8,009 nt of DNA from Chthonomonadales bacterium (GCA_038217285.1 JBBQPO010000279.1:1-8009), one strand, 5' to 3'. Counted from the first letter of the stretch, positions 2,326-8,009 are shown. Notes: generated from the sequence alone by a model not told the origin. Translations and numbers: made by a program.

Positions 2326-4500
2326 TCAATCGGGAACCGGAAATACGGCTCTGATTCGTGTGCCCTCCCCGGGAACGCTCCATATCTCAAAGCTTCCATG
2401 CAGCAGATTCACGTGCTCCGCCATGCTGTGAAGGCCCAGATGATTGTACTCCTTGCGCTTGGCCTGCGCCTCGAAGCCTTTGCCCCAGTCGCGTACCTCC
2501 AGCGTCAGACGCGAAGGACCGGACTGCGTGGCAGGCTCATTTCTCAACAGTACCTGGACTTGATCTGTTTCCGCGTGTTTACGGGCATTGGCGAGCGCCT
2601 CTTGCGCCACCCGATAAACGGCGGTTTCCAGAACCGTCTCGAACCGCTGGATCGGAATGTTATGGTGCAGTTCCGCCTTCTGCCAGCCTGCACGCAGCTT
2701 CTCTTCCGTCAGCAGTTGTTCCAAGGCCCCTGTCAATCCCAGATCATCCAGAACGAGAGACCTCAGGTTGTTGACCACGCGGCGCGCTTCGACCACGGCC
2801 TGAGAGAGGTATTTCAACCCCTTTTCCAGGTCTTCCGGCATCTGTTCCTGCGTCGCCCGGTAGCGCTCGGCATACGTGTCCATAAACGCCTGGGACGCCA
2901 TGACATACTGGGTTAAACCGTCGTGCAGATCATAAGCCATCGCCCGGCGTTCGTCTTCCAGCATATTCATAAAACCATGGGTCAGCAGTTGCTGTTGCTT
3001 GCGAATCTGCTCCTCTGCCTGTTTGCGTTCGGAGATATCGACCGTTACTCCCCGCAGACCGATCGTCTGGCCGCCCTCATCTTGAATAGGCAGCAGACGG
3101 GTCTCGACCCAGAGCGGCTGTCCCTCTTTGGTCATCCAGAGAAAATCGAGATCCCGTCGTTCGCCGTTGCGCCGAATCTCGTTGAGCTCCTGCACAACCA
3201 TAGCATGGTCGTCCGGATGAACGATCTGAAGCCAGAAATCTCGACTGTCGAGCCACTCCGAGAGAGAATAACCCAGCATTGTGCCGACATAACCGCTGGC
3301 GAAGTCCGACCGAAGTGAGCGGATCTCTTCGCCTTCCCAGACCTCCCAGATAACGGCAGGCACCTGGACGAGAATGTCCCGCAGTCGCTCCCCTTTTTGA
3401 TGCAACTGCTGCGTCAAACGCAGGTTTTCGAGGGCAATCCCGGCTTCGTTCGTGAAAACGGAAAGCAGTCTTACCTCCTCTTCCGGGATTGGGGACGACC
3501 TGTCGGTCTGATTGTGACGCAGTATGCTGAGCGTCCCGATAACGCCTGTCCGATCTCGCATAGGCGCGATGACGGAGGAGCCCACCAGGCCGTACTTCTC
3601 CACAGTGGGCTTATGATGACGTGGCGACAGCAGATCGGCCGCCACCAGAGTCGTCCCGGTGCGCCACACGTAGGCATGCACATCTTCGTCCAGATCTTCC
3701 TCGTCGTACAGTGCGCGGACGGTGTCGCGCACGGCCCCGGGTGGAAACCCATGTCCTGCGACGCCTTCTATCACACGCTCGCCCTGGTTCACAATACAGA
3801 GCATGACCCAATCCAGGGGAAAGACGCTGCTGACGGCCTCTACGATGAACTGATAGAGCTGATTCAGAGTGGTGGCTTCATGCAGTCGGGCGCTATGACG
3901 CTCGAGAAGAACGAACTGGGCATTGTGGCGTTGCAGAGCCTGCTGCGACTGCTTACGCTCCGTGATATCGAAGAGGGCGATCCGAAAGCGGTCGCCGGAC
4001 GCTTCGGCGCCGCCGACCGCAATGCCTTCCAGTTGGCCGTAAAAGCTGTGTCCCGTTTTCGCGACGAAGCACAGTTCGCATGTCTGTTTTACGCCGGTTT
4101 CCACCAGTCGCTTCCAGTAGGCGGGGCACTCCCTCCGAGAAGCGGTATCCATAAAGTCGATCAGCGGCAGATTCTGCAAGGTCCGGACGTCACTGCCCAG
4201 GAGAGCCGCACCCATGAGATTAGTTTCTCGTATGCGTGTCTCTGAATCCAGCGTGAAATAGCCGATCGGAGCGAGATCGTACATATCGCTGTATCTGGCG
4301 CGAAACCCTTCCGCTTCCAGACGAGCCTGCAGCAACGCCTCATTGAGCTGCTGTAGAGAGACATGGCCCTGCCCGCCTTCCTGATGCAGGAGGGCAGGCC
4401 CCGAAACTGCTTTCGGGGCGGCAACGCTCTGCAGGCCGGCTGTGATGAGTTCTGAACTTCCCGGATCTGGTTTCATAACTTCACGATCTATCCAATACAC
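2326..4500 (-). CDS. Soluble multi-sensor histidine kinase, PAS-GAF-PAS-HisKA_3-HATPase (NarX/UhpB-like class); alternative start ATG 4476
   Basis: PAS1 (YDLAPIGYFTLD...FDITERK), GAF (IAPMRDRTGVIGTL...EEEVRLLSVFTNEAGIALEN) and PAS2 (VHPDD...WVE...DISERKQAE). H-box ERRAMAYDLHDGLTQ, N-box QEALANARKHA, G boxes DWGKGF, GLHSM and PGEGT. No transmembrane segment is apparent. Confidence 0.95.
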   Translation of the reverse strand: MYWIDREVMKPDPGSSELITAGLQSVAAPKAVSGPALLHQEGGQGHVSLQQLNEALLQARLEAEGFRARYSDMYDLAPIGYFTLDSETRIRETNLMGAALLGSDVRTLQNLPLIDFMDTASRRECPAYWKRLVETGVKQTCELCFVAKTGHSFYGQLEGIAVGGAEASGDRFRIALFDITERKQSQQALQRHNAQFVLLERHSARLHEATTLNQLYQFIVEAVSSVFPLDWVMLCIVNQGERVIEGVAGHGFPPGAVRDTVRALYDEEDLDEDVHAYVWRTGTTLVAADLLSPRHHKPTVEKYGLVGSSVIAPMRDRTGVIGTLSILRHNQTDRSSPIPEEEVRLLSVFTNEAGIALENLRLTQQLHQKGERLRDILVQVPAVIWEVWEGEEIRSLRSDFASGYVGTMLGYSLSEWLDSRDFWLQIVHPDDHAMVVQELNEIRRNGERRDLDFLWMTKEGQPLWVETRLLPIQDEGGQTIGLRGVTVDISERKQAEEQIRKQQQLLTHGFMNMLEDERRAMAYDLHDGLTQYVMASQAFMDTYAERYRATQEQMPEDLEKGLKYLSQAVVEARRVVNNLRSLVLDDLGLTGALEQLLTEEKLRAGWQKAELHHNIPIQRFETVLETAVYRVAQEALANARKHAETDQVQVLLRNEPATQSGPSRLTLEVRDWGKGFEAQAKRKEYNHLGLHSMAEHVNLLHGSFEIWSVPGEGTRIRAVFPVPD

Positions 4501-4538
4501 GCGTCAATGAGTCGGAAAGGCGACGATCAAACAGATCT

Positions 4539-4588
4539 ATTATAGCCCTCGAATCCGATTTTTGCCGTCTGCTGTTCGGCAGATTTTG
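4539..4588 (-). promoter_or_regulatory. Putative kinase promoter: palindromic operator (4565-4588) plus -10 TATAAT (4544-4539)
   Basis: The minus strand reads caaaatctgccgaacagcagacgg, then 20 nt, then a perfect TATAAT. Confidence 0.72.
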
Positions 4589-4654
4589 CGTTATAAATCG
4601 CACACCTGCCGACGGCTCTCTCCGCCCGCAAATCCTCCCTTTCGCCTCCTCGCT

Positions 4655-4703
4655 CAAAATGTGCCGTTTCGCAGATGTTTTCCTGAGCCTGTCCTGACAT
4701 ACT
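4655..4703 (+). promoter_or_regulatory. Putative pilBC promoter: palindromic operator (4655-4678) plus extended -10 TGaCATACT (4695-4703)
   Basis: caaaatgtgccgtttcgcagatgt, then 19 nt, then CATACT. The motif is 23/24 identical to the copy at 7686-7709. Confidence 0.72.
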
Positions 4704-4732
4704 AAACCAGGCGTGAAGAGAGGAACAGCGCA

Positions 4733-6445
4733 ATGGTCACTATGGACGTAAAATCCTATAAACTGCCTCTGGGCGAGCGCCTTGTCGCTCAAGGGCTGAT
4801 AAATGAGCGCCAGTTGGCGCAGGCGCTGGAGTACCAGCAGGAGAGCCACACTTTTCTCGGGCAGGCGCTGGTCTCATTAGGGTTTCTCACGATGACGGCC
4901 GTCGGCCCGATTCTGGAAGAGACCTCCGGATTTCCTTACGTTGACCTTTCCAGTACCGATATAGATATGGAAGCCGCGCGCCTGCTTCCCGAGACGCTGG
5001 CGCGCGAGAAGCGGGTGCTGCTGTTCGCCGCTACCGAAACCACGGCGCGTGTGGCGATGATGGATCCCCTGAACCTGACTCTCGTGGATGAGCTGCGAGG
5101 CCGCCTGCACAAACGGGTGTTTCCCTACGTCGTCTTCGAAACCGACTTGATGGACGCCATCGGACGTGTCTACGATATTCGCCTGAGAACGCAGAAGGTG
5201 CTGGACGAGATCGCCGAAGTGCCCAATGTGGATCCAGAACTGTCGGTGGACGCCCTGATCAATATGGCCGAAGATGCGCCCATTGTCCGACTGGTCAACA
5301 GTCTCATTCAATCGGCGGTTTCGTCGGGGGCCAGCGACCTGCACATCGAGCCGCAAGAGAAATCGGTTCGCATTCGCTTTCGGCAGGACGGGGTACTGTA
5401 CGAGCAGGCGACGATCCCGCGCCAGCATCTGGCCGCCGTCGCTTCCCGCATCAAGATCATGGCACAAATGAATATCGCGGAACGGCGGCGCCCCCAGGAC
5501 GGCAGAATCGCCTTTCGTTCGGCCAACGGTCAGCAGTACGATCTCCGTGTCAGCTCTCTTCCTCTTATTTACGGCGAGAAAATCGTTATGCGCGTTCTGG
5601 CCAAGAACGGCTCCTTTGCCAACTCCGCGACCCTGGGATTTTTTCCGCAGCAGAAGGAGATGTTCGAGAAATTCATCCGGCAGGCGCACGGACTGATGCT
5701 GGTGACCGGCCCCACGGGATCGGGGAAATCCACGACACTGTTCGCCGCACTCAACCAGATCAACGACTCCACCCGCAACATCAATACCGTGGAAGACCCG
5801 GTCGAGTACAACGTGCCCGGCGTCAACCAGATGCAGGTGAATACGCAGATCGGAGTCACCTTCTCCGCCGGACTGCGCACCCTCCTCCGCCAGGACCCGG
5901 ATGTGGTCATGGTCGGAGAGATTCGCGATCACGAAACCGCCGAGATGGCGGTTCAAGCGGCTCTGACAGGCCACCTTGTCCTCTCGACGCTCCACACCAA
6001 CAGCGCGGCGGGAGCGCTCACCCGCCTGCTGAATATGGGGATCGAACCTTTTCTGATCACCTCTTCGCTGATCGGATCTATAGGGCAGCGGTTGTTACGC
6101 ACCATCTGCCCTAACTGCCGCGAATCCCAGCCGGTCGATCGCGCCAAACTGGCCATACTGGGCGATATACCAGACGCGAGGATTCCGGACACGCTGCCGG
6201 TCGGACGCGGATGCGAAAAGTGCGGAGGCCGTGGCATGAAGGGCAGAACCGCCGTCTATGAGCTTATGCCCATGACGGATACGATTCGCGAGATGGTGAT
6301 GCGGAACGCACCGACCGAGGATATTCATCATCAGGCCGTCGCCGCTGGAATGATCACTCTGCGCAACGCTGGCCTGGAGAAGGTGCTGATGGGACAGATT
6401 ACGCCCGATGAGCTGTTGCGCGTTCTGTTTTCGGAGGGGGTTTAA
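4733..6445 (+). CDS. pilB: Type IV pilus assembly ATPase PilB / GspE-family ATPase with N-terminal MshEN-like domain (570 aa)
   Basis: LGERLVAQGLI..QLAQAL..Q MshEN-like motif, ASDLHIEP, ERRRPQDGRI, Walker A GPTGSGKS, Asp box TVEDPVEY, LRQDPDVVMVGEIRD, His box TGHLVLSTLHTN, and tetracysteine Zn motif CPNC...CEKC. SD GAGAGG upstream. Confidence 0.95.
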   Translation: MVTMDVKSYKLPLGERLVAQGLINERQLAQALEYQQESHTFLGQALVSLGFLTMTAVGPILEETSGFPYVDLSSTDIDMEAARLLPETLAREKRVLLFAATETTARVAMMDPLNLTLVDELRGRLHKRVFPYVVFETDLMDAIGRVYDIRLRTQKVLDEIAEVPNVDPELSVDALINMAEDAPIVRLVNSLIQSAVSSGASDLHIEPQEKSVRIRFRQDGVLYEQATIPRQHLAAVASRIKIMAQMNIAERRRPQDGRIAFRSANGQQYDLRVSSLPLIYGEKIVMRVLAKNGSFANSATLGFFPQQKEMFEKFIRQAHGLMLVTGPTGSGKSTTLFAALNQINDSTRNINTVEDPVEYNVPGVNQMQVNTQIGVTFSAGLRTLLRQDPDVVMVGEIRDHETAEMAVQAALTGHLVLSTLHTNSAAGALTRLLNMGIEPFLITSSLIGSIGQRLLRTICPNCRESQPVDRAKLAILGDIPDARIPDTLPVGRGCEKCGGRGMKGRTAVYELMPMTDTIREMVMRNAPTEDIHHQAVAAGMITLRNAGLEKVLMGQITPDELLRVLFSEGV

Positions 6446-6448
6446 CTC

Positions 6449-7660
6449 ATGGCTGTGTTCAGTTATGTCGCCCGCGATCAAGAGGGTAATCAGCGTCTGG
6501 GTACGATCGAGGGGCGCGACCTGGGAGACGCCCGCGAAAACGTGCGTGCCCGCGATCTCTACGTCGTCACGATCCAGCGTAAAGCGGATACGAGCAAGCA
6601 GTTCTCGCTCTTTCGTAAAAAGAAGGTGAAACTGGGAGACCTCGTTGTGATGAGCCGCCAACTGGCCACTCTGTTCCGGTCGGGCATCTCGCTGTTGGAC
6701 TGCCTCTATGCCGCCTCTCGCCAGTCCGAAAGCCCGATGCTCGCCCAGGCGCTGGAGGGGGTGCGCCTGGCCGTCATGGGTGGCAGTACGCTGACCGATG
6801 CCATGAAACAGTTTCCCGACGTGTTCAGCGGAAAGTTTATCGCTCTGGCCCAAGCCGGCGAGGCAGGCGGTGTCCTGGACCAGACGCTGGAGGTGGCTGC
6901 CGATCAGTTCGACCGCGAGGCGGACCTTCAGGAAAAAATCAAGGCCGCTGCCGTCTACCCGACCATCGTCATGTGCGCCTGCGTCGGGGTCGTGATCTTC
7001 ATGCTGGTCTTCATCGTGCCAGTCTTCGCGACGGTTTACACGCAGTTCCACGCCAAGCTGCCACCTCTCACGACCCTGTTGATCAACGTCAGTGACGTTC
7101 TGTTGACCTACTGGTGGGCGGTGTTGATGACCGTGGTCGTTACCACCCAGTTAAGCAAGAGGTTCATTCGCACTCCTTATGGAATGCGGTGCTATCATCG
7201 CTTGCAGCTCAAGATCCCGCTGCTCGGCAAGCTGAACCGCAAGGTGGCAGTCGCCCGGTTTACCGAAACCTTCTCGGGAGCGGTCACGGCAGGCATTCCG
7301 ATCCTGCAGGCTCTCTCCGTCTCCGGCCAGACGACCGGTAACGTCATCATCATGGACGCCATCGAGCGAGCCGCCACGCAGGTGCAGGAAGGCGCTCCGC
7401 TGGCTCCCTCTCTGGAACAGTCGGGGGAGTTTCCCCCGATGATCATCTATATGATCGCCGCAGGCGAGCAGTCCGGCAGCCTGGATATCATGCTAGCGGA
7501 GATCACCCGGTTCTACAGCCGGGATATCGAGTATGCAGTCGGTAAACTCACGCGCGCCATGGAACCCCTGATGACCATTCTGATCGGTATCATCGTGCTC
7601 TTCATTCTGCTCGCGCTCTATATGCCGGTCTTCAATATGACCCAGGTCATTCAGAAGTAG
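6449..7660 (+). CDS. pilC: Type IV pilus inner-membrane platform protein PilC / GspF family (403 aa)
   Basis: RQLATLFRSGI, AGEAGGVLD..L, KIKAAAVYP, LP..T..L, AGEQSGSLD.ML and C-terminal MEP..T...G..V...LALYMPVF, with three hydrophobic segments. Starts 3 nt after the pilB stop, with SD GGAGG inside the pilB end. Confidence 0.96.
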   Translation: MAVFSYVARDQEGNQRLGTIEGRDLGDARENVRARDLYVVTIQRKADTSKQFSLFRKKKVKLGDLVVMSRQLATLFRSGISLLDCLYAASRQSESPMLAQALEGVRLAVMGGSTLTDAMKQFPDVFSGKFIALAQAGEAGGVLDQTLEVAADQFDREADLQEKIKAAAVYPTIVMCACVGVVIFMLVFIVPVFATVYTQFHAKLPPLTTLLINVSDVLLTYWWAVLMTVVVTTQLSKRFIRTPYGMRCYHRLQLKIPLLGKLNRKVAVARFTETFSGAVTAGIPILQALSVSGQTTGNVIIMDAIERAATQVQEGAPLAPSLEQSGEFPPMIIYMIAAGEQSGSLDIMLAEITRFYSRDIEYAVGKLTRAMEPLMTILIGIIVLFILLALYMPVFNMTQVIQK

Positions 7661-7685
7661 ACACCCGTTCTCGTGCGGGTCGAGA

Positions 7686-7735
7686 CAAAATCTGCCGTTT
7701 CGCAGATGTCGCCGCGCTGTCCGCTCCGCTACAAT
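7686..7735 (+). promoter_or_regulatory. Putative pilin promoter: palindromic operator (7686-7709) plus -10 TACAAT (7730-7735)
   Basis: caaaATCTGCcgtttcGCAGATgt contains a perfect ATCTGC-N6-GCAGAT dyad, followed by 20 nt and then TACAAT. Confidence 0.75.
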
Positions 7736-7807
7736 AGAGCCATCGAAGCAGAGCCGGTCTGAATTTGAACACTATGTACGCGCTTCGTATTTACCAAGGA
7801 GGCTTCC

Positions 7808-8009
7808 ATGTTTCGTAACCAACTGCGCACCGCCGCTCGAAACCGCAAAGGTTTCACGCTCATCGAACTGCTCGTCGTCGTTCTGATCCTCGCCATCCTC
7901 ATGGCCGTCGCCATGCCGCTCTACCTCAGCGCGGTCGCCGACTCTCAACTGAAGACCTGCCGCGCCAACATGCAGACCATCGCCAACGCCGTGCAGGCAG
8001 CCCGTACCA
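7808..8009 (+). CDS. Type IV pilin (prepilin-type N-terminal cleavage/methylation protein), probably the major pilin; 3'-truncated by the window edge and absent from the ORF track
   Basis: Manual translation gives MFRNQLRTAARNRKG|FTLIELLVVVLILAILMAVAMPLYLSAVADSQLKTCRANMQTIANAVQAART. It has a 15-aa basic leader, G|F cleavage site, E5 and P22. Perfect SD AAGGAGG at 7796-7802. Confidence 0.95.
   Translation, partial: MFRNQLRTAARNRKGFTLIELLVVVLILAILMAVAMPLYLSAVADSQLKTCRANMQTIANAVQAART

Follow-up and report, generated by a model that had tools for sequence, protein, structure and literature searches.

In Mycobacterium tuberculosis (DevR/DosR with DevS/DosT) and in Streptomyces coelicolor (OsdR/OsdK), a NarL-type response regulator is paired with a GAF-containing HisKA_3 kinase and a palindromic box. 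According to the account of DevR, a promoter-proximal box that overlaps the -35 element is a common feature of its targets (PMC3029386), and the DevR and OsdR regulons are described as containing universal stress proteins (USP), nitroreductases and redox proteins, clustered around the regulator gene (PMC5069765). Here, a system of similar build is presented from contig C279 (JBBQPO010000279.1) of an uncultured soil bacterium of the family Chthonomonadaceae. This entire contig of 8,009 bases, referred to as the window, carries three copies of a 24-mer with a palindromic core, located before a sensor kinase gene, before pilB-pilC and before a pilin gene. A comparison with the whole genome and with relatives suggests that the 24-mer is the operator of the NarL-type response regulator encoded in the window (positions 1456-2151, + strand), and that this regulator would switch on genes for type IV pili and for cyclic di-GMP (c-di-GMP) enzymes, a reading that we consider probable rather than secure.

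PilS-PilR of Pseudomonas, Myxococcus, Xanthomonas and Lysobacter is likewise a two-component system located near pilus genes and controlling the major pilin, PilR being an NtrC-type activator that works with sigma-54. In Caulobacter crescentus, where the pili are of the Tad/Cpa type, the regulator involved is CtrA, an OmpR-type cell-cycle regulator. In the corresponding accounts, Lysobacter PilR is described as coupling pili to c-di-GMP (PMC8035640), and CtrA at the -35 position as activating pilA without sigma-54 (PMC11264516). Unlike PilR, the window regulator is composed of a receiver and a GerE domain only, with no AAA+ domain, and the promoters considered here carry TAnnnT -10 boxes. At up to two mismatches, no -24/-12 element (GG-N10-GC) is found in the intergenic regions of the window, the three weak matches inside the kinase open reading frame (ORF) being at chance level, and the sole strong PF00158 (sigma-54 activator) gene of the genome lies on another contig, C50. 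A preliminary description of this DNA had contrasted the locus with sigma-54/NtrC control of pilins, and this contrast is upheld, with no sigma-54 promoter or NtrC-type activator at the window promoters. The CtrA-pilA case differs in another way, since a NarL-type regulator and machinery of the PilB/PilC/PilT type are found here.

In the window, the operator before pilB-pilC (CAAAATGTGCCGTTTCGCAGATGT; 4655-4678, + strand) and the one before the pilin (CAAAATCTGCCGTTTCGCAGATGT; 7686-7709, + strand) agree within one mismatch, and the operator before the kinase (CAAAATCTGCCGAACAGCAGACGG; 4565-4588, - strand) is divergent from that of pilB. The genes concerned code for a PilB-type assembly ATPase (4733-6445, + strand; T2SSE and MshEN, PF00437 at 2.8e-135), a PilC-type platform protein (6449-7660, + strand; T2SSF, PF00482 at 1.2e-55), a small pilin with an N-terminal methylation motif, truncated by the contig end (7808-8008, + strand; PF07963 at 1.3e-10), and a cytoplasmic sensor kinase with GAF, PAS, HisKA_3 and HATPase domains (2326-4500, - strand). 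Scored with a position weight matrix (PWM) built from the genomic matches, the operators reach 37.1, 39.1 (the top score in the genome) and 26.2 bits, respectively, and the kinase operator, at 26 bits, also belongs to the upper score group of the genome. None of 200 shuffled windows contains any match at up to three mismatches. The three 24-mers had already been placed at these coordinates and strands in the preliminary description, in intergenic DNA and each pointing at its gene, and the sequence check confirms this, together with the claimed spacings of 19, 20 and 20 nt to CATACT (4698-4703, + strand), TACAAT (7730-7735, + strand) and TATAAT (4539-4544, - strand). By the fixed offset rule set out below, the -10-like CATACT and the -10 hexamer TACAAT would mark the pilBC and the pilin promoter. 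The earlier remark that no good -35 is present agrees with a consensus scan of positions 4400-8009, in which no sigma-70-type -35/-10 pair was found. For the dyad, first given as ATCTGC-N6-GCAGA(T/C), the symmetry stands but the fixed ATCTGC does not, since the pilB operator has ATGTGC and other sites have ATATGC or ATCCGC.

The centre of the dyad precedes the first base of the -10 hexamer by 31-32 bp and, provided that transcription starts 7 nt past this hexamer, would fall about 42.5-43.5 bp upstream of the start. The class II positions of CRP and of the LuxR lux box are -41.5 and -42.5, respectively. The arrangement at this locus is alike in having a dyad at the -35 region, a fixed distance to the -10, no -35 of its own (a -10 is present and a -35 is not found, as in activator-dependent sigma-70 promoters of this class) and a dimeric helix-turn-helix (HTH) protein as the predicted binder. 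However, the operator is conserved as an asymmetric element that always stands in one orientation, as would be unnecessary for a simple palindrome, and the start position is a predicted one.

The same pattern is repeated across the source genome (6.21 Mb in 459 contigs, 95% complete), where the 24-mer with the dyad ATCYGC-N6-GCRGAT marks about 40 promoters, at a density of about one site per 130 kb. The PWM scores are bimodal genome-wide, with 95 matches falling between 8 and 13 bits, 5 between 14 and 19, and 49 reaching at least 20, and the 40 best sites, to which the following counts refer, score 23 bits or more. With a degenerate consensus of the class A sites defined below, allowing up to four mismatches, the whole genome gives 24 matches, the reversed pattern none, and 20 column-permuted patterns 0 or 1 each. 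A -10-like hexamer (four or more of the six bases identical to TATAAT, including the second, A, and the sixth, T) is found at offset 19 (18 sites) or 20 (17 sites) in 35 of the 40 best sites, and at every other offset from 0 to 33 in 0-3 of the 40. The columns preceding this hexamer are mostly G or C, and no extended -10 TG is conserved. The operator is asymmetric, with a conserved distal CAAAAT or CACAAT, a central TTT and a proximal GATGT, and divergent gene pairs show two oppositely oriented sites, each correctly spaced from its own -10, in the window (4565/4655), on C370 (4174/4227) and on C154 (9134/9187). Moreover, conservation begins and ends sharply at the borders of the 24-mer, the flanks being unconserved, which excludes a mobile repeat with longer arms. 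A common dispersed repeat unrelated to promoters, an alternative that had been raised from the start, is contradicted by the fixed offset and by these unconserved flanks.

The sites fall into two classes. Positions 3 and 8 co-vary in the 40 best sites, being A,T in 23, C,C in 11, C,G in 2 and other in 4, and on this basis the 23 sites with the distal half CAAAATnTGCC are called class A and the 13 sites with CACAATCCGCC or CACAATCGGCC class B. Seven hybrid sites combine the class A distal half (A3, T8) with a G at position 19. Of the four best sites assigned to neither class, three are probably false, two of them sitting within long ORFs with no -10 box and the third having its -10 at offset 25; the fourth fronts a second zinc-ribbon protein. 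The three window operators are all of class A.

The genes behind the two classes, identified by Pfam matches and counted as unknown where the downstream ORF has none, do not overlap. Pilus genes follow 7 of the 23 class A sites, namely pilBC, a PilT-like ATPase and five pilins of 133-138 aa, two of which have further genes behind them, a PAS-GGDEF-HD_5 gene in one case and an operon with PilM in the other. Two class A sites stand directly before GGDEF genes, coding for a Reg_prop-GGDEF-HD_5 protein and a PAS-GGDEF protein, and a third GGDEF-HD_5 gene is the one that follows a pilin. The other class A targets are the window kinase, an operon with a second NarL-type regulator, double-zinc-ribbon, TPR, ankyrin and sacsin-like proteins, and eight genes without a Pfam match or truncated by contig ends. 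Of the class B sites, three lead into tandem universal stress proteins (in one case with a nitroreductase next), two into P-type ATPases, one each into a Fer4-Rieske pair, a truncated globin plus reductase, a YflT protein and an acetyl-CoA hydrolase, and four into unknowns. The class B form CACAATCCGCCATTTCGCGGAT is spread over contigs C154, C339, C238, C1, C7 and C143 (loci L009, L010, L018, L022, L023 and L017). No pilus gene is found behind the 13 class B sites, and no stress protein behind the 23 class A sites; the gene content of class B is DosR-like.

Among the pilins, the operator is found with one kind. Only 4 of the 36 complete prepilin-like ORFs have a site, and all four belong to the small-pilin class of 133-138 aa; they are encoded on C49, C67 (two) and C198 and are paralogues of the truncated window pilin, which is the fifth, 5 of the 6 small pilins found in the source genome being fronted by the operator. 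The enrichment of the motif upstream of pilus genes that had been anticipated is therefore found, in these five small pilins, pilBC and the PilT-like ATPase, and it is seen again in the congeners G031 and G033. The regulon of pilBC and pilin first proposed keeps its pilus link but was drawn too narrowly, since about two dozen promoters, including those of c-di-GMP enzymes, carry the operator, and the whole would be an offshoot of a phylum-wide stress regulon.

Two further class A loci of the source genome deserve description. On C370 (2822-4250, L006), divergent class A promoters separate the gene of a double-zinc-ribbon protein of about 420 aa from that of an unknown protein, with a TPR gene nearby; this zinc-ribbon/TPR layout with sites recurs in G033 (L102), and a second site-fronted zinc-ribbon protein is encoded on C10, these proteins being steady members of the regulon. 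On C3 (14039-15662), a class A site precedes the operon with the second NarL-type regulator, which is 31% identical to that of the window, and about 3 kb past this operon a cluster of PilB-/PilT-like ATPases is found (18658-23251, its start lying in L008). This arrangement could represent a cascade by which a second pilus, or a secretion system, is regulated.

The window regulator has a receiver at residues 22-132 (PF00072, 1.4e-25) and a GerE/LuxR HTH domain at residues 167-222 (PF00196, 6.1e-20). The acidic pair DD (VVDDHE), the D (LLDIRM), the T (MLTTY) and the K (YLLKG) of the receiver are visible, the roles of these residues being assigned by eye. With a phospho-acceptor Asp and acidic pocket in the receiver, a GerE/LuxR HTH and a presumed partner kinase of the HisKA_3 type encoded next to it, the protein has the sequence features of the NarL/FixJ family. 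Its closest solved structures, over full-length alignments, are VraR (E 3e-42) and NarL, DevR being the fifth best (E 6.6e-33). VraR/LiaR of the Firmicutes thus share the receiver-GerE architecture and give the best structural match, but the gene sets described here bear no sign of a cell-envelope stress regulon, and VraS/LiaS are membrane kinases, whereas the partner kinase in the window is cytoplasmic, with GAF and PAS domains.

Orthologues of the regulator at 59-86% identity occur in Chthonomonadaceae, Capsulimonadaceae, Abditibacteriaceae, Armatimonas and other Armatimonadota, and homologues at 45-49% identity in Chloroflexota, Bipolaricaulota and Rubrobacteraceae; the relatives closest to the window genes are themselves labelled Chthonomonadaceae, phylum Armatimonadota. 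Among the 54 loci with at least 59% identity, 22 have a site (at least 15 bits, on the same strand, beginning -16 to +400 nt relative to the regulator stop) immediately behind the regulator gene, as against none of the 8 loci at 45-49%. At about one site per 130 kb in the source genome, such a frequency greatly exceeds what chance would give. Behind the regulator-adjacent sites stand genes for ScdA/hemerythrin (3), USP (3), a P-type ATPase, cytochrome oxidase subunit I, a BON protein, alcohol and 2-hydroxyacid dehydrogenases, DoxX, a weak cupin match, a pilin (L031) and a PAS-GAF kinase (L075), while six have no Pfam match. Also, among 42 Chthonomonadaceae genomes, a regulator of at least 58% identity is present in 24, of which 12 have strict class B matches, and none of the 18 genomes without such a regulator has a strict match of class A or B. 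The exact core pattern ATCCGCCRNNNNGCGGAT is found in 50 of 201 sampled genomes of the phylum versus 3 for the reversed control; these are mostly single matches with unrelated central bases, so that this pattern is too blunt as a phylum-wide marker.

A maximum-likelihood tree of 59 regulators places the window regulator with those of L027, L028 and L075 (support 100/98), and L031 and L047 of the genus g3 join this A-clade at lower support (93/78). All members of the A-clade have a Gly before the recognition helix (EGTVKTH or EGTAKTH), and most other regulators a Ser, at a residue that aligns with a Lys of DevR which we take to contact bases. The recognition helix itself, TVKTHVEHII, is identical in both sub-families. 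For the regulators of other genera, 18 of 19 were classified (L134, G019 left out); all are nearest to non-A-clade proteins and have Ser or Cys at the Gly/Ser residue. Class A sites, in turn, are limited to the two genera that hold an A-clade regulator, save for one match in the 35 other genomes of the family.

The distribution of class A sites can be followed in the source and its four congeners (genus g1) and in the two genomes of g3. The strict class A pattern, at up to two mismatches, matches in all five g1 genomes (12, 5, 6, 15 and 13 sites), and in the 37 other family genomes it gives one match, a CCGCC-type site, the reversed control giving none. A looser pattern (CAAAATNTGCYRNNNNGYAGA, exact) matches in 7 of 7 g1 and g3 genomes, with 13, 5, 8, 12 and 10 sites in g1 and 4 and 6 in g3; elsewhere it has one match in 1 of the 35 other family genomes (G011, without a regulator of the family), and its reversed control has none in the 42. 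The regulon is kept in two congeners: in G031, class A sites stand before five pilins, a PilT-like ATPase and one regulator of the window-regulator family, and in G033 before two pilins, a GGDEF-HD_5 protein, a divergent TPR/zinc-ribbon pair as on C370 and an orthologue of the second regulator (63% identity). The nearest relative locus, L027, whose regulator is 86% identical, keeps the pilB and pilin sites; its kinase site also persists in a degenerate form, 19 nt from a TATAAT. In g3, genes and sites run in the order pilin, pilC, pilB, site, regulator, site, pilin and GAF-HisKA_3 kinase, with class A-like sites before pilB (in a divergent form), after pilC and after the regulator. By comparison, PilB orthologues of 59-62% identity in G016 and G017, genomes without an A-clade regulator, have no site of at least 10 bits within 1.5 kb. 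The co-occurrence with regulator orthologues that the preliminary description called for is observed in the 22 of 54 adjacent loci, in the restriction of class A sites to A-clade genera and in the repeated layout of g3.

A separate observation concerns G016, where a class B-like site (CAAAATACGCCGTTCCGGGGATGA; contig C47, 3274-3297, L115) lies about 110 nt before a PilB-like paralogue that is 44% identical to the window PilB. This hints that the tie of the family to secretion ATPases may be older than the duplication discussed below.

The kinase is presumed to be the partner of the regulator. No hydrophobic segment is present at its N-terminus, the 19 residues of highest hydrophobicity falling within the GAF domain, and its first 200 residues or so have no Pfam match at E 0.001 and look PAS-like by eye, which makes the earlier designation as a soluble PAS-GAF-PAS kinase reasonable; GAF and PAS are confirmed by Pfam, whereas the first PAS domain is PAS-like by eye only. 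A search against solved structures returned generic PAS and HATPase matches only. An orthologue of the kinase adjoins the regulator in L027, L028 and L075, and GAF-HisKA_3 kinases adjoin it in g3. Moreover, in five class B-type loci (L044, L049, L052, L071 and L065) the regulator gene is immediately preceded by a (PAS-)GAF-HisKA_3-HATPase gene, and other genes with sites surround the regulator-kinase pair. The orthologue in L027 (10712-12334) aligns to residues 183-723 of the window kinase only and is without the first 180 residues or so, the PAS-like part; close relatives may thus not share the same sensor input.

When these results are set against the DevR and OsdR systems, the class B set emerges as the counterpart. 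The pairing with a GAF-HisKA_3 kinase is seen at class B-type loci as well as in the window, but the stress gene set is found behind class B sites only, with USP, ScdA/hemerythrin and cytochrome oxidase subunit I behind sites in relatives, and not behind class A sites. The box differs from the OsdR/DevR-like consensus, being AGGGCCGATCGGCCCT for OsdR as described (PMC5069765) versus AATCCGCC-N4-GCGGAT here; since VraR and NarL are better solved matches than DevR, DevR orthology is not shown, and the class B system would rather work like DevR/OsdR. The window regulator, on the other hand, is predicted to control pilus and c-di-GMP genes, none of which is listed in the available text of the DevR and OsdR accounts (PMC3029386, PMC5069765).

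Based on these comparisons, the following scheme can be proposed. The adjacent cytoplasmic kinase, through its GAF, PAS and HisKA_3 domains, would phosphorylate the regulator, whose phosphorylated dimer would bind the dyad ATCYGC-N6-GCRGAT, overlapping the place of the missing -35, and would recruit the housekeeping RNA polymerase to promoters that have a -10 only, as in class II activation. The -10-only promoters, the strict spacing and orientation and the intact-looking receiver fit this type of activation by a phosphorylated dimer. At about two dozen promoters, class A sites would drive pilins, pilBC, the PilT-like ATPase, three c-di-GMP enzymes, two double-zinc-ribbon proteins, the second NarL-type regulator and the kinase; with such a list of targets, the system would switch a pilus and c-di-GMP programme and feed back on its own sensor. 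The window regulator would be a lineage-specific paralogue present in two Chthonomonadaceae genera, its parent being an Armatimonadota-wide regulator encoded with a (PAS-)GAF-HisKA_3 kinase, with a near-identical class B operator at USP, haem and iron-sulfur repair and ion-pump genes. What the sequences show directly are the sites, their constant spacing to the -10 boxes, the genes behind them, and the co-occurrence and adjacency with the regulator family; binding, the kinase-regulator pairing, activation and the distance to the start are inferred. The comparative evidence supports the preliminary reading, each check that sequence permits having come out in its favour. More tentatively, and with rather less confidence than doubt, a DosR-like stress system of Armatimonadota may have been duplicated in Chthonomonadaceae and one copy rewired to type IV pili and c-di-GMP, being insulated by a two-base change in the distal half (CACAATCC to CAAAATnT) of an otherwise identical operator, perhaps together with the Ser-to-Gly change before the recognition helix. 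In the congeners G030, G032 and G033, an A-clade copy (81-86% identity) is accompanied by class B-type copies (67-70%), one or two per genome, and G031 has a class B-type copy as well (L098, 81% identical to L032 and L044), so that all four congeners have one.

Several observations weigh against the proposed scheme. The Gly/Ser residue tracks site class imperfectly, with Gly in L034, L072 and L073 beside CCGCC/ACGCC sites, and G031 has class A sites but, as its only Gly-type regulator, a divergent protein (63% identity) that itself lies behind a site. The window regulator gene has no site of its own and, being convergent with the kinase, shares no operon with it. Besides the window genes, no second, class B-type regulator or kinase was found in the 95% complete source assembly, apart from a fragmentary kinase gene divided between the ends of C348 and C423; one family regulator is then accompanied by at least 13 class B promoters, and the picture of one paralogue for one class is not shown in the source genome. 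The predicted starts, and hence the -42/-43 position, derive from the -10 hexamers, a search for public RNA runs over positions 4400-8009 having listed none. Finally, the match between class A sites and the A-clade spans two related genera, which are kin and not independent and possibly reflect one evolutionary event, so that it is suggestive and not a statistical proof.

The presence of a single family regulator in the assembly bears on who reads the two classes. With seven hybrid sites and a recognition helix that is identical across the sub-families as well, the window regulator alone might read both in this genome, the classes being affinity or context variants of one regulon. We consider this unlikely: all four congeners carry class B-type copies, often on short contigs, so that the source copy may be unassembled, positions 3 and 8 co-vary sharply, with only 6 of the 40 sites outside the A,T and C,C pairs, the gene sets are without overlap, and genera with class B-type regulators only have no class A sites. 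A real operator with another binder, the window regulator being a mere neighbour, appears improbable. One candidate for such a binder is the second NarL-type regulator (C3-type; on C3 and on contig C50 of G033), which is a conserved member of the class A regulon in G000 and G033 (63% identical), is present in 5 of 5 g1 genomes and could be the binder there, a point that also counts against the reading we prefer. However, the C3-type regulator is found in 0 of the 2 g3 genomes (E 1e-50), though in them class A-like sites lie next to pilB, to pilins and to the A-clade regulator, and it is present in G007, G008 and G039, which have no class A sites. The other candidate is a Crp/Fnr-type dimer. 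The source genome encodes at least five Crp-type HTH proteins above the Pfam cut-off, a weaker Crp-type match is located just 5' of the class B site that fronts the globin gene of C7, and the geometry of the site, similar to the 5-N6-5 of Crp/Fnr, cannot separate GerE-type from Crp-type dimers; nonetheless, no Crp-type gene adjoins the sites as the regulator family does, and the absence of strict sites from all 18 family genomes without that family speaks against either candidate.

Binding by the window regulator could also have the opposite effect. NarL-family regulators can repress, and the proximal end of the operator overlaps the place of the -35, a position equally usable by a repressor, which again tells against simple activation; the regulator would then repress or act dually, blocking RNA polymerase over the -35 until a signal releases it. 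This, too, is held to be improbable, because promoters with no -35 match and no conserved extended -10 TG should be weak by themselves, as is typical of activator dependence, and because the single orientation and spacing (35 of 40) is what face-of-helix contacts with the polymerase would require and simple occlusion would not; DevR, the functional analogue, is moreover described as activating from the same position (PMC3029386). That the dyad is a structural element instead, namely a hairpin (in RNA or DNA), an antisense intrinsic terminator or a short dispersed repeat, can be given hardly any credence. Two of the three window sites were scored as terminator-like on the opposite strand, with a stem of 6-7 bp and then TTTTG (4567-4584, + strand, and 7707-7690, - strand), and positions 8 and 19 often change together (T/A in 16 sites, C/G in 10). 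But position 7 is variable (C 26, A 8, G 6), although the base it would pair with, at position 20, is invariably G (40 of 40), leaving the stem broken and uncompensated in 14 of 40; the T run comprises just four bases, the conserved flanks or target duplication of a mobile repeat are absent, and the element lies upstream of a gene and points with it at a fixed distance from the -10 box. The hairpin or terminator and the dispersed repeat were rejected on these grounds, the terminator-like calls being probably a by-product of the dyad and its A-rich distal flank.

At the other end of the window, an NHL-repeat protein (406-1377, + strand; Pfam) is encoded directly 5' of the regulator gene. An NHL gene occupies the same place in the relatives L027 and L075, with Pfam NHL matches in both, which represents conserved synteny. 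Further 5', at positions 68-126, a tandem repeat is observed, with a 23-base unit (GTGGGCCAATTTACAGTATCGAA) in 2.6 copies with 83% matches.

In open-access full text, no account was found of the operator, of a NarL-type pilin regulator (among the matches listed) or of any regulon in Chthonomonas or Armatimonadota, in agreement with the earlier suggestion that this may be an undescribed pilus regulon; in the available text of the Fimbriimonas genome paper, type IV pil and response regulator genes are merely listed. A NarL-type two-component activator at a class II position is a known principle. The novelty would lie in its wiring to type IV pili and c-di-GMP, in the operator, and in paired near-identical operators with separate gene sets.

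Gene regulation in Armatimonadota is almost unknown, most of the phylum being uncultured, and here the sequence alone yields a testable unit, consisting of a kinase, a regulator, a 24-bp operator at single-base resolution, a promoter rule and a gene list. For pilin genes, this would be a route to control unlike the textbook PilS-PilR/sigma-54 one, placing pili and c-di-GMP enzymes under one switch. The class B parent regulon, found beside the regulator in Chthonomonadaceae, Capsulimonadaceae, Abditibacteriaceae and Armatimonas-type genomes, looks like an equivalent in function of the dormancy regulon of mycobacteria, although the phyla are unrelated, and near-identical operators with non-overlapping gene sets offer a natural system for how paralogous regulators avoid cross-talk. 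If the duplication and rewiring proposed above are true, they would provide a natural example, resolved at the sequence level, of the joint divergence of a regulator and its operator, and the production of pili in this phylum would be a response to redox or gas signals sensed by GAF/PAS kinases.

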